Made by a program: the position numbers and the translations under genes | In this document: in pieces, positions 60,676 through 63,963 of the stretch | Numbering within the stretch: position 1 is the first letter of the stretch | How the letters are laid out: each line of letters opens with the position of its first letter | Notes under the pieces: model-generated | What the model saw: the letters and a program-made list of their open reading frames with translations, nothing else | Told to the model about the DNA's origin: nothing | Database searches by the model: none | Source: Chlamydiota bacterium | GTDB lineage: Bacteria > Chlamydiota > Chlamydiia > Chlamydiales > SM23-39 | Assembly (NCBI GenBank): GCA_031423235.1 | Contig: JANPFC010000054.1 | Span: 13,691 to 77,690, forward strand | DNA: 64,000 bases | Reading direction: 5' to 3'

Positions 60676-60790
60676 AATAAAAAAAAACTCAGCACGAAGC
60701 TGAGGTTTGTTTTCTTTCGGACGCAGTGGGGACCAATTCGTACCGAGTCGCTCACCTCCCCTTCCAGAGCAAAATCCCCTTCAATGAGAG
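60676..60790 (+). repeat. Direct repeat copy 1 (~110 bp) upstream of cassette 2, including a terminator-like hairpin
   Basis: Aligns by eye at about three-quarters identity with 63716-63828 (aaaaaaaa..ctcagc....gctgagg.tttgttttc..gga....accaattcg.acc....cgctc.cctccccttcca....aaaatcccc). Confidence 0.75.
60688..60719 (+). terminator. Terminator-like hairpin plus T-rich tract (CTCAGC-acgaa-GCTGAG-gtttgttttctttc)
   Basis: 6-bp stem with a T-rich tail and an A-run upstream. No obvious plus-strand gene ends here, so it is probably inherited with the repeat. Confidence 0.4.
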
Positions 60791-61028
60791 CATGCCCGCT
60801 TACCAACAGTTTTCCAAATAAATCAAACACTTAAAAACACATGGCATGAATGATCAGGCAATCGCTACCTGTATGAGGATTATAAGAAAAATAGTTAAAA
60901 TAATGTTATGTTGTAGCCAAAGACACTTGATTTGGAAAGCACCATAGGATGAATTTAGACTGAGCTATGAACATTTACATAAAATAAATATCTTTATATA
61001 GTGCCTGACCCAACCCAGTAGGGACACT

Positions 61029-63125
61029 ATGAGTTCAGATCTATCTATTGATTCTCTCGACAATTCTTTGAGTGAGTTTTATCTTGCGCCCCCTCTCAAT
61101 TACAGTGACTGGAACGGGTACCAAATTACTTGGAGAGATGTTCCTGAAATTCGTTCCGAAGTGGAACGCCGAATCTTACAGATTTACAATTCGGGCAATC
61201 ATGTCCTTGCTTTACAATTGGCAAACCTATACTTCGAGCAAATTTATCCCCGTTATGAAATCCAACAAGTGAAATCGTCTAAGCCAGGCATATTCGATTC
61301 TGAGGAGAACCTTGGAGAGTGGCTGAAGTATGCTAGAGAATTCCATGACAGGTTAATAGAAGAACAGAATGTGGTACTGGGCGAAGTTGGATTAATTGAT
61401 CCCCCACCCCCTCTTGAACCGATTTCAGAAACCAATTACCCAGCTCTTTGGGCTCATCAGGTATATTGCCTGGAAAATGGGATTGCCCTATCAACACCAA
61501 AGTCTCACTCAGGTGGATTGAAGGAATTTTGGAAAGAACATAAAACAGCGATCATTATTGCCGCCGTTGTCATTGTTGTTGCCGTTACCGTTGTTGTTGT
61601 CATTGTAACAACGGGAGGGACAGGTACAAGTATTGCAGTCGCATCGGGAGCGGCGGCGGCTCAAGCCGCAATTGATGATTACAATTCCTCTGAGGATCCC
61701 AATCTACAGAATTTGCAATACGAATCCAACGTCAATGAGGGAATACAAAATTTTGCCAAGGCAATTGGTGCAACCGATGTGAATAACGCCAATGGGGCAA
61801 TCACTCTCATTGAGACGAACTCCATATCATCAAAGCTTACCCCTGAAATTTTGACAGATCTTGTAAGTAATTGGAACCAGAACCTGGCTATGGGCAAAGT
61901 TGCAGTAGCAACTGGCGAGCAATCAGAAATCGCATTTCACTCTCCAATCCTGCAGCCTACCATTCAACATTTCACTGTGAATGAAAGCACTGTTTCTTTA
62001 GGACATCCTCAAGTATCAAATCCACTTGAACAATTAGATCCACAACCTATGAGTCTTCTGCCTTGGGTCACTGAAGGAATTAGCTACCTCCAATGGAAGG
62101 AGAGAAATTATCTCGAACAATTGTTCAAAGAATTTGAAAATATGGATAGTACGTCTGCAAGCAACAATGTGGCTTCAGCCCAATCGACTCCCGATGAAGC
62201 TCATCCTAAAATTACAAATCCAAGCGAATGGATTGAATTGCCTCAGGAGACAAGGCCACGATTTAATGATCGAATTGTAGAGGATTATCTAAATGATATA
62301 GAAAGAAGCCCAAATCGCACCAAAAAAAATAATTTCGCTTCAAGGGCAGATCATTTTTTCGACAGCTTTCAATCGCCGCCTCCATATCCAAAAATGGACC
62401 TCATTGGAAATCTTGATCAAAGCACCATCCATTACCATTGTGGTATAGGCAATAGTGATTCCGATATAATCGAAGGAGGAACTTGTCTATATGGAACACT
62501 AGGTGAAGAATTTGCAGTTCAACCTCATCTCATTCACTCAGATCGTGTAGGATCGGGACTTGGCTTTGTTGCTCTGGAACAAATTGAGAAGAACCAGGCT
62601 CAAGTCAGAGAATTGCAGCAAGGATTTTATTTTAGAGAAGATGATACACTAAGACTCCCTCAAGTGATTCTCGATTACTCTAACATCCAAAAATCGATCG
62701 ATTACGAGGTTGAAAATCTATCCAAGATCGCTCAAAATATAATTAAGCAAGGAAATCCAAACTTGAAGCAATTGCATGTGACATTCAGCAATGGTGGTTA
62801 TATCTTCAACGAAGCATTAAAACAGCTGCCTTCTGAATATCGAGAAACAATTATTGTTGTTACAACAGGTACTACAAAGATTGTAGATTATGATTCCGCC
62901 CATAAAGTATATAATATAATAGGAGATAAAGACAAAGGTTCGCAATTATGTAATGGAGGATTGAGTGGAATTGAAAAAGCAAAAGACAGGACTGATGTGA
63001 GAGTAATTCCGCAAACAGAAACTCAGAAATGGGTAGGCGGTCATTACTTTATCCAACCAAACTACCAAGAAGCAATTTTGGACTATTTAAAAGACGAGGT
63101 AATTAACAAATATGAGATTTATTAG
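61029..63125 (+). CDS. Membrane-anchored protein with C-terminal Ser-Asp-His alpha/beta-hydrolase-like domain (cassette 2)
   Basis: 698 aa. MSSDLSIDSL. TM segment AIIIAAVVIVVAVTVVVVIV. Blocks STIHYHCGI, VTFSNGG (Ser codon 62787-62789), IGDKD, GGHYF. Confidence 0.8.
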   Translation: MSSDLSIDSLDNSLSEFYLAPPLNYSDWNGYQITWRDVPEIRSEVERRILQIYNSGNHVLALQLANLYFEQIYPRYEIQQVKSSKPGIFDSEENLGEWLKYAREFHDRLIEEQNVVLGEVGLIDPPPPLEPISETNYPALWAHQVYCLENGIALSTPKSHSGGLKEFWKEHKTAIIIAAVVIVVAVTVVVVIVTTGGTGTSIAVASGAAAAQAAIDDYNSSEDPNLQNLQYESNVNEGIQNFAKAIGATDVNNANGAITLIETNSISSKLTPEILTDLVSNWNQNLAMGKVAVATGEQSEIAFHSPILQPTIQHFTVNESTVSLGHPQVSNPLEQLDPQPMSLLPWVTEGISYLQWKERNYLEQLFKEFENMDSTSASNNVASAQSTPDEAHPKITNPSEWIELPQETRPRFNDRIVEDYLNDIERSPNRTKKNNFASRADHFFDSFQSPPPYPKMDLIGNLDQSTIHYHCGIGNSDSDIIEGGTCLYGTLGEEFAVQPHLIHSDRVGSGLGFVALEQIEKNQAQVRELQQGFYFREDDTLRLPQVILDYSNIQKSIDYEVENLSKIAQNIIKQGNPNLKQLHVTFSNGGYIFNEALKQLPSEYRETIIVVTTGTTKIVDYDSAHKVYNIIGDKDKGSQLCNGGLSGIEKAKDRTDVRVIPQTETQKWVGGHYFIQPNYQEAILDYLKDEVINKYEIY

Positions 63126-63696
63126 TTTAATATTAGTTTTAATGTTTATGATCTCTGGATGTAACCGTAAAACGGTTGGGGAAATTATAGAGAAGGACCC
63201 GTCATATAAGGTTATGCTTACATTTTCCGAAGAAATCAAAAAAGAAACTAATTTGATTTTAACATGCTACGGATACAACAATTGTCTTGATAAAAATTAT
63301 CATCACATAAATGAAGTCGCTAATTTTTCTCTAAGTTATTTGCTCACCAAAAGTAAAGAAGAGGAAATCTCAATCGAAGAAGCAAGAAATCTGGTTGTAT
63401 TTGTTGCTGAAAATTTTCTAAAAACAGTGAATTCCGACACCAAAGTCATCCCTATGTTGGATGTATATCCATTAACAAGTGATTCGATTAGAGTTTCTAT
63501 TCATTTTGAAGATGAAAATAGAATTCATCTGGGACAGGGAGTGGCAAATGTTCGTTTGAGGCGTGGAGAAATCGTATATGATGGCTTTAAAATTAGGGAA
63601 TATACAGGTAAATATCCAGCCAAAGGAAAGCACTACACCATATTCGAAGAGAGCTATGCTGGTGCCCTGGAGAAAGTTTCGAGAAAAGCGATATAG
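63112..63696 (+). CDS. Small lipoprotein, cassette-2 partner
   Basis: MRFISLILVLMFMISGC. Homologous to 53113..53706 and 53722..54321 (VVFVAENF, LDVYP, FEDE.R..LGQG, KGKHY). 14-nt overlap with the upstream gene. Confidence 0.75.
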   Translation: MRFISLILVLMFMISGCNRKTVGEIIEKDPSYKVMLTFSEEIKKETNLILTCYGYNNCLDKNYHHINEVANFSLSYLLTKSKEEEISIEEARNLVVFVAENFLKTVNSDTKVIPMLDVYPLTSDSIRVSIHFEDENRIHLGQGVANVRLRRGEIVYDGFKIREYTGKYPAKGKHYTIFEESYAGALEKVSRKAI

Positions 63697-63715
63697 GCCT
63701 TTGGGTATGGAGCCA

Positions 63716-63828
63716 ATAAATAAAAAAAAGACCTCAGCTTTCGCTGAGGTCTTTGTTTTCGGACCCGGTCGTCACCAATTCGAACCTTTTCGCTCCTCCC
63801 CTTCCAAGTTAAAATCCCCATTAATGAA
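63716..63828 (+). repeat. Direct repeat copy 2 downstream of cassette 2
   Basis: See copy 1 (60676-60790). Confidence 0.75.
63722..63760 (+). terminator. Rho-independent terminator after the cassette-2 lipoprotein gene
   Basis: A-run, then a 9-bp stem GACCTCAGC-tttc-GCTGAGGTC, then TTTGTTTTC. Confidence 0.8.
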
Positions 63829-63963
63829 GACCTGGCACTTCATCAGAAACTTGCAACAAAAATCAAGGAATTGAAAATTCTTGGTCTCACCAATGAAGAG
63901 ATCGGAAGAAGACTGGGAACTACAAGAAAAACAGTGAAGAAGGGGTTACGGTGCAATACATAA
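63748..63963 (+). pseudogene. Start-less open frame ending in a helix-turn-helix (possible recombinase/transposase-family remnant)
   Basis: 70 codons without ATG or GTG: ...KIKELKILGLTNEEIGRRLGTTRKTVKKGLRCNT*. The HTH-like segment lies close to the C-terminus. The 5' part lies in direct repeat copy 2. Confidence 0.4.

Follow-up and report, generated by a model that had tools for sequence, protein, structure and literature searches.

Direct repeats around a gene pair in a Chlamydiota contig as probable attachment-site relics of a large serine recombinase family

Near its right end, the stretch of contig JANPFC010000054.1 analysed here (Chlamydiota bacterium, assembly GCA_031423235.1, positions 13,691 to 77,690, forward strand; 64,000 nucleotides, hereafter the window) carries two direct repeats that flank a gene pair encoding a large membrane-anchored protein and a lipoprotein. 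The downstream repeat runs into a helix-turn-helix (HTH) reading frame without a start codon, which raises the question of what kind of event left these sequences behind. We consider it likely that each repeat is the relic of an attL-type junction of an integrative element of environmental Chlamydiota encoding a large serine recombinase (LSR), and that the two repeats stem from separate acquisitions. The start-less frame itself very probably represents the C-terminal ~65 residues, an HTH extension, of an LSR with a split-gene architecture.

Alignment of copy 1 (60675-60913) to copy 2 (63718-63953) extended over 241 columns with 64.7% identity (blastn, E 2e-21). The first-pass annotation had described direct repeats of ~110 bp bracketing the gene pair; both statements were confirmed, and the homology proved longer than claimed. 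The segment composed of an A-run, a hairpin and a T-tract is identical in 31/45 columns (69%), the segment from CGGAC to AAAATCCCC in 47/63 columns (75%), and the rest of the repeat after AAAATCCCC in 77/133 columns (58%). Upstream of the A-run the copies share no similarity, as the alignment score of 19 does not differ from the shuffle mean of 19.5. A family profile of the fragments matched the window at these two places only, with E values of 5e-33 for copy 2 and 3e-12 for copy 1, where it also picked up a separate frame-shifted 5' piece.

The frame that continues past copy 2 (frag2) is present as annotated and comprises 67 codons (63760-63960) followed by a TAA stop at 63961-63963. In its counterpart in copy 1 (frag1), a 2-nt insertion near 60753-60755 shifts the frame and an in-frame TAA occurs at 60819-60821. 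The early termination noted previously is only part of the picture: the HTH-coding remnant runs past this TAA to about 60913, with 41% identity over 54 aa (tblastn, E 2e-9). A 71-aa translation of frag2 returned 100 protein matches (phmmer, HMMER scan; best E 3e-20), about 90 of which are short open reading frames (ORFs) with unrelated N-termini, all aligning from one residue (RTR). The family consensus reads RTRxxPIRTxSLLPxQIKIP...KIKELKALGMSNxEIAxxLxIxRKTVxKGL. Homologues that extend upstream read ...YYLAHSxIxTLALLEExKGTNW...; one of them (P0022) reaches the recombinase zinc-ribbon domain, and a 625-aa protein (P0170) combines the Resolvase, Recombinase and Zn_ribbon_recom domains with the HTH tail in frame. 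Pfam matches of the HTH extension itself are weak (Sigma70_r4_2, GerE, HTH_7). The HTH had been attributed to a small recombinase or transposase-type protein; it is indeed a recombinase C-terminus, that of a large serine recombinase and not of a small one. The lack of a start codon in frag2 is explained by its being the 3' piece of a split gene.

Resolvase, Recombinase and zinc-ribbon domains were found in 120/120 listed LSR homologues. In the LSR of locus L015, the Pfam E values for the resolvase catalytic, recombinase and zinc-ribbon domains are 1.6e-27, 5.7e-20 and 1.5e-8, respectively, and the best solved-structure match of the LSR is the TP901-1 integrase. The hosts of the related loci are placed among environmental Chlamydiota, one relative having TLC translocase and DUF2709 neighbours. 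Three proteins that are 64-67% identical to the chlamydial recombinase (P0180, P0201 and P0229) are annotated as originating from Candidatus Omnitrophica and Aureabacteria metagenome-assembled genomes (MAGs); by this annotation, the LSR family reaches beyond Chlamydiota.

An alignment of six sequences was used to search for related loci, yielding 81 loci, of which GTDB genomes contributed 13 and JGI metagenomes 68. In 92 junctions from these loci, DNA homology begins at CGGAC and the 5' flanks are unrelated; the same start was found in each of 88 distinct fragments from chlamydial genomes and metagenomes. Where P and P' are joined in frame (L007, L004, L025, L027, L029, L031, L034 and L085), the junctions are perfect inverted repeats centred on GA, such as GTACGAATTGGTAC-N18-GTACCAATTCGTAC in L007 and AAAGGTTCGAATTG-N26-CAATTCGAACCTTT in L085. 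The arms of L007, L015 (reconstructed), L004 and L085 match perfectly over 14-16 bp and lie 16-26 nt apart, centred on the GA of CGGAC. Across the 88 distinct fragments, half-site positions are 92-100% invariant, third-codon ones included (92-99% at positions 3, 12, 15, 18 and 21), compared to 28-50% conservation at third-codon positions past nucleotide 27. Invariance at third-codon positions indicates that a cis-acting site is superimposed on the coding sequence. The predicted attP thus placed within the LSR frame, ~65 codons before the stop, has the anatomy of a serine-integrase attP. Only its P' half is retained in the window copies.

Integrated elements of the family display a recurrent geometry. 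In L015, a fragment (10004-10201) is followed by four cargo genes, a 585-aa LSR (14592-16349) and a tRNA-Ser(GGA) gene on the minus strand (16307-16396); family homology of the LSR stops at ...GTNWYLL, and the ORF then enters the antisense strand of the tRNA for 13 codons. This layout is repeated in L004, L010/L053, L013, L054 and L062 with tRNA-Ser(UGA), (GGA) or (GCU), so that six integrated elements bear the fragment at one end and the rest of the LSR gene at the other, abutting tRNA-Ser. Their attL and attR junctions have only CGGA plus a few bases in common. Among the best 120 LSR clusters, one is full length and at least 110 end in antisense tRNA-Ser: 46 read into the antisense tRNA (RRRWDSNPR...), and 64 stop no more than 6 residues past the junction, mostly with RKR*, as encoded by CGGAAGAGGTAG, the 3' end of tRNA-Ser(UGA) read in antisense. 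Downstream of GA, the motif ATTCG occupies positions 10-14 in the tRNA-Ser half-site and positions 15-19 in the P' half-site. In serine-integrase attB sites, the motif bound by the zinc-ribbon domain lies 5 bp closer to the centre than in attP (PMC3783163). The 5-bp inward shift of ATTCG in the tRNA half-site corresponds to this published signature.

We propose from these comparisons that the LSR family catalyses recombination between attP and attB. The attP would recombine with the 3' end of tRNA-Ser and thereby split the recombinase's own gene: the last ~65 codons (RTR..PIRT..., HTH) would end up at the left end of the element, beside the host flank, and the first ~570 codons at the right end, against the tRNA-Ser 3' end. 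In genomes, the gene is split almost always; excision would restore its full length. A full-length recombinase including the HTH tail was seen on a single contig, L085 (SDBT01045946.1, 6.5 kb), together with HTH_3 repressor-like, DUF4145 and nucleoside deoxyribosyltransferase-like genes; this contig has no terminal overlap, and could either represent the excised state or come from a tandem array.

Both window copies fit the left end of such an element, as intact P' half-sites are joined at the crossover core to a flank, which bears out the attachment-site character suspected in the first-pass annotation. The crossover dinucleotide GA would lie at 60720-60721 in copy 1 and at 63762-63763 in copy 2. 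Outside the half-site, copy 2 is only ~60-70% identical to other fragments. Frag1 and frag2 are 63% identical to each other, frag2 is 71% identical to the fragment of L005, and frag1 is 66% identical to that of L006. Together with the differing decay of the two fragments, these values suggest two acquisitions of different age, the younger one at the right, which is the order produced by accretion towards a tRNA-Ser gene located past 64000.

These same data bear on a local segmental duplication or deletion scar, in which a unit made of terminator and fragment was doubled in place, perhaps with the cassette, and then diverged. The two terminators do share a stem found nowhere else in the window, and a paralogous cassette lies 4.6 kb away on the other strand. 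However, frag1 and frag2 resemble fragments from other genomes at least as closely as they resemble each other, the open frag2 and the broken frag1 imply different ages, the homology ends exactly at the A-run with nothing shared upstream, and the paralogous cassette has no fragment nearby. Furthermore, integration by serine recombinases creates no duplication of 110-240 bp. We consider local duplication unlikely; the simple scar, or the two products of one insertion, suggested previously do not agree with the closer relatives that each fragment has in other genomes, nor with their unequal decay. The coordinates of the features of the region are given in the table.

Features of the repeat region in the window
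Feature	Position	Strand	Remarks
Decayed tRNA-Ser(UGA)-like remnant	60591-60673	+	Smith-Waterman against tRNA-Ser(UGA) of L013
Bidirectional intrinsic terminator 1	60676-60717	both	Flank ('B arm') of junction 1
Predicted P' half-site of LSR attP, copy 1	60718-60744	+	CGGACGCAGTGGGGACCAATTCGTACC; 26/27 bases identical to L043
frag1, decayed remnant of last ~65 LSR codons	60718-60913	+	Profile E 3e-12; tblastn
698-aa membrane-anchored protein gene ('large gene')	61029-63125	+	No Pfam family
194-aa lipoprotein gene	63112-63696	+	Cassette 2
Bidirectional intrinsic terminator 2	63718-63759	both	Homologous to terminator 1; B arm of junction 2
Predicted P' half-site of LSR attP, copy 2	63760-63786	+	CGGACCCGGTCGTCACCAATTCGAACC; 27/27 bases identical to metagenome locus L023, 26/27 to L017
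frag2, open 67-codon LSR C-terminal remnant	63760-63963	+	RTRSSPIRTFSLLPFQVKIP...HTH...RCNT; profile E 5e-33; phmmer

The flank at each junction is a palindromic terminator. Terminator 1 consists of an A-run (60676-60687), the hairpin CTCAGC-ACGAA-GCTGAG (60688-60704) and a T-tract (60705-60717); it is terminator-like in both directions, the minus strand having a T9 run. Terminator 2 has a 12-bp stem (63727-63754) and would also serve the lipoprotein gene. The pattern CTCAGC-N3-6-GCTGAG occurs twice in the 64 kb, both times at the repeats, for an expected number of 0.01, and in the metagenomes no match was found in which the same hairpin is joined to a fragment. The translation of P0018 suggests the same hairpin. 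A terminator lies directly 5' of the junction in 5/71 distinct non-tail junctions under strict criteria, compared to 0.1% of random positions; a terminator abutting the junction is expected 3' of a minus-strand tRNA gene. The 4.95-kb Logan contig L001, an independently assembled version of this sequence from the same organism, ends inside terminator 2 at the equivalent of window position 63751; that it stops a few bases short of the crossover core may be due to low coverage or to a heterogeneous population at the junction.

Such a strong minus-strand terminator, a family that is multi-copy in several MAGs (three loci in one of them) and a first ~60 nt more conserved than the remainder are also what one would look for in a dispersed non-autonomous repeat, akin to miniature inverted-repeat transposable elements (MITEs) or repetitive extragenic palindromes (REPs), or in a minus-strand small RNA gene with a T8 terminator, neither of which involves recombination. 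We regard this as very improbable. The repeats occur as two copies in 64 kb that are 63% identical, with neither the terminal inverted repeats nor the target duplications of MITE/REP families, and a terminator accompanies only the 5/71 junctions mentioned above. The first ~60 nt past the terminator looked best conserved because both P' half-sites are intact, the conserved block being accounted for by a half-site that overlaps conserved codons. Neither ARAGORN nor Rfam at gathering thresholds called a tRNA or tmRNA gene at the repeats, permissive Rfam runs returned only generic terminator-type matches there, and the fold z-scores around the terminators (-1.7 and -2.8) are unremarkable. Minus-strand ORFs at 60588-60830 and 63654-63821 were considered and discarded, as they only mirror conserved DNA and the one in copy 2 terminates immediately.

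The first-pass annotation had also reported an inverted partial copy of the repeat to the left of copy 1, and 60641-60660 is indeed the reverse complement of 63779-63798 at 19/20 bases. This segment belongs to a sequence resembling the tRNA-Ser(UGA) of L013 (Smith-Waterman score 49; shuffles 19.2 +/- 3.1, maximum 34), the 3' end of which corresponds to GGTTCGAATCCTACCTCTTCCG at 20/22 bases. The 5' part alone gives p of about 0.002-0.014, and among unrelated 98-nt segments of the window the highest score is 43-44; support for the likeness outside the 3' end is moderate. The sequence was called neither by ARAGORN nor by the Rfam tRNA model, at default or 85% thresholds, and on similarity alone we regard it as a tRNA remnant or pseudogene. 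What accounts for the inverted partial copy is that the P' half-site mimics the antisense strand of a tRNA 3' end, while the remnant across the palindromic terminator represents the sense one. Combined with this terminator, the remnant looks like an unoccupied minus-strand attB (CCG-GA-AGAGGTTGGTTCGAACC). A derivation of the same segment from the tail of an LSR gene was rejected, since DNA alignments to five LSR tails did not exceed shuffles and tRNA-Ser fits better.

Fragments of this family also occur in series. In L009, L012, L020, L024, L029, L031, L034, L037, L040 and others, 2-5 fragments of the same orientation follow one another at intervals of 0.8-3.7 kb, forming arrays; the two fragments of the window are 3042 bp apart. 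When L020 is joined to L010, the array ends in an LSR tail followed by a tRNA-Ser gene. By our own tally of 26 internal array junctions, 6 follow an LSR tail, as expected under tandem accretion, 3 are truncated and 17 are sharp joints to unrelated DNA, which are hard to obtain by random deletion and which we count as unexplained. The window junctions would probably be the first units of an accretion array, each acquired separately, in which case a recombinase gene and a minus-strand tRNA-Ser gene are expected to the right, past 64000. As it applies to this window in particular, we find such a history reasonably probable.

The arrays lend themselves to a different explanation resembling integrons, in which the tRNA-proximal recombinase acts in trans to cut out and re-insert LSR-less units composed of a fragment, 1-3 genes and a short flank, the gene pair being one such cassette. 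Units of 0.8-3.7 kb are far below the size of a complete element, the 17/26 sharp junctions between a non-recombinase tail and CGGAC would rarely arise by random deletion, and flanks of ~19-45 nt are common to units in three arrays, the window included: successive fragments share ~45 nt of flank in L024 and ~25 nt in L020, though the fragments themselves differ. On the other hand, flanks are entirely different in 14/20 within-array pairs, neither a circular cassette nor an identical cassette in two contexts was seen, and the gene pair is found without fragments in relatives. Moreover, no serine integrase is known to recombine attL-type sites without a directionality factor (see PMC3783163). 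A cassette mechanism of this type appears quite unlikely to us.

Several observations weigh against the repeats being junction relics of separately acquired elements. Both window junctions share a homologous 42-nt terminator flank (31/45 columns, same CTCAGC stem), whereas canonical attP x attB integration yields one flank-P' junction per attB; flank sharing was likewise seen in L024 and L020. The homologous terminators could be paralogous tRNA-Ser terminators joined by rearrangement, a flank carried along with the unit, or the outcome of a cassette-type mechanism. The tRNA-Ser-like remnant lies on the plus strand, which is the wrong orientation for the target of junction 1. The window holds neither an LSR gene nor a tRNA gene, only C-terminal remnants, and reading it as an array therefore draws on analogy and on sequence past 64000. 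None of the 81 other fragment-bearing loci has the gene pair next to its recombinase fragments. Finally, only integrated and tandem states were seen for these elements, and neither an excised circle nor an empty site for any of them.

If the repeats are junction relics, the gene pair would either sit where the older unit has its 'cargo' or be host DNA that supplied its terminator as the flank of the younger insertion. Since units of this family begin at their left end with the fragment, copy 2 would open the next unit and not close the cassette. The G+C content of the pair is 0.37-0.44, below the window average, as is that of the paralogue at 53-56 kb. The paralogue of the 698-aa gene (54308-56389, minus strand) is located 4.6 kb away, within a cassette (53113-56389) in which the gene for a 693-aa protein precedes a tandem pair of lipoprotein genes. 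Identity between the 693-aa protein and the last 266 aa of the 698-aa protein is 51%; between the two lipoproteins it is 80%, and they are 41-44% identical to the product of 63112-63696. Within the window, the family profile detected no recombinase fragment near this cassette. The pair also occurs in two related genomes, in other neighbourhoods and without the repeat, with 65% (L003) and 48% (L002) amino-acid identity; the first-pass annotation had named such an occurrence as contrary to its suggestion of a cassette inserted or mobilised as a unit, although both relatives are distant. At present, the repeats probably act in transcription termination only, but they could still mediate deletion of the gene pair. 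On this reading, the right end of the window would mark the edge of an integration hotspot.

The relatives of the recombinase share with serine integrases of the phiC31, Bxb1, A118/LI, TP901-1 and SPbeta types the Resolvase, Recombinase and zinc-ribbon architecture, a predicted attP of ~50 bp with inverted-repeat half-sites around a central dinucleotide, and the 5-bp shift of attB. They differ in that attP lies inside the recombinase ORF, so that integration would remove a C-terminal HTH domain of ~65 aa, in that this domain is an addition beyond the zinc ribbon and coiled coil, and in that tRNA-Ser 3' ends are targeted. The window itself has split-off pieces and no enzyme.

Gene partition on integration is established for the 'suicidal' SSV-type integrases of archaeal viruses and plasmids, in which insertion into a tRNA gene leaves N- and C-terminal fragments at the borders of the element, where they survive as relics (PMC8371274). 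In 2021, these tyrosine integrases were described as exclusive to Archaea (PMC8371274). The chlamydial family shows both an attachment site in the integrase gene and partition of the gene upon integration; unlike SSV-type enzymes, it consists of serine recombinases, and its hosts are Chlamydiota and other bacterial MAGs. Judging from its domains, the N-terminal part keeps all recognised catalytic and DNA-binding domains and need not be inactivated. Islands of the Islander/TIGER type, which encode tyrosine integrases, are described as accumulating at one tRNA or tmRNA gene, with direct repeats bounding the units and integrases lost during decay (PMC4383910). The chlamydial arrays are alike in accumulation at a tRNA gene, repeat-marked units and integrase loss, and differ in the repeat, which is a displaced tRNA 3' fragment in those islands and here the 3' end of a recombinase gene, only the first 27 nt of which mimic a tRNA. 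Compared to integrons, no tyrosine integrase was found and the repeat is not an attC site; only the array layout is similar. The filamentous phage phiRSM, on which Askora et al. reported in 2011, is said to integrate at tRNA-Ser by means of a small resolvase-like serine recombinase, with attP outside the gene. In the integration-dependent immunity of mycobacteriophages, reportedly described by Broussard et al. in 2013, attP lies in the repressor gene and integration by a tyrosine integrase truncates the protein and alters its activity.

We tentatively suggest, as a possibility that falls somewhat short of even odds, that a widespread bacterial LSR family (Chlamydiota, with homologues annotated as Omnitrophota and Aureabacteria) carries attP in its own coding sequence, and that integration at tRNA-Ser reversibly strips its HTH domain. 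Such a family would be the serine counterpart of the 'suicidal' integrases; loss of the domain could act as a switch of directionality or expression, and the arrays could result from recombinase-driven cassette accretion, the window containing two units. Our search found no published description of a serine integrase with attP in its own gene, which is weak evidence of novelty given its incomplete coverage of the literature. Genome engineering makes major use of serine integrases, whose directionality is believed to depend on a separate factor. If the proposal is true, a recombinase gene deprived of a DNA-binding domain by integration and given it back by excision would represent a new natural means of controlling directionality, and gene-partitioning integration would extend to Bacteria and to serine recombinases. 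The start-less 'gene', the direct repeat and the inverted partial copy would all be explained as decay products of site-specific integration, and the significance of the locus comes mainly from the family-level property that these relics expose and not from a present function in the window. CGGAC-N10-CCAATTCG followed by the HTH codons provides a handy marker for past integrations in environmental chlamydiae.

Other features were observed at related loci and to the left of the repeats. A composite tRNA-Ser-like sequence lies ~170 nt upstream of the fragment in L005, L006, L017, L023, L026, L028, L036 and L045, in the order TTCGAATCCCAC, an extra hairpin GCGAGCCA-N4-TGGCTCGC, then TTCTTCCG; Rfam returned nothing for this sequence and relaxed ARAGORN only noise. 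In L006, a recombinase tail and the crossover core come before it. The sequence could represent an atypical target, or a relic, derived from tRNA-Ser. L036 also contains a group II intron catalytic-domain match (4962-5037, minus strand; 53 bits, above the gathering score) ~2.5 kb from its recombinase fragment. In the window, a BrnT toxin gene (60141-60422, minus strand; Pfam PF04365, E 7e-21) is located immediately to the left of the tRNA-like remnant, and a small ORF that overlaps it (59927-60196, minus strand) could encode its BrnA partner in a type II toxin-antitoxin pair. Pairs of this type are typical of mobile and variable regions. Further left, a 19-nt palindromic motif, TTGTTATAAAGTTATAACA, is present twice upstream of a HAD-hydrolase gene (59703-59721 and 59730-59748, 27 nt spacing), and this intergenic motif pair looks like an operator.

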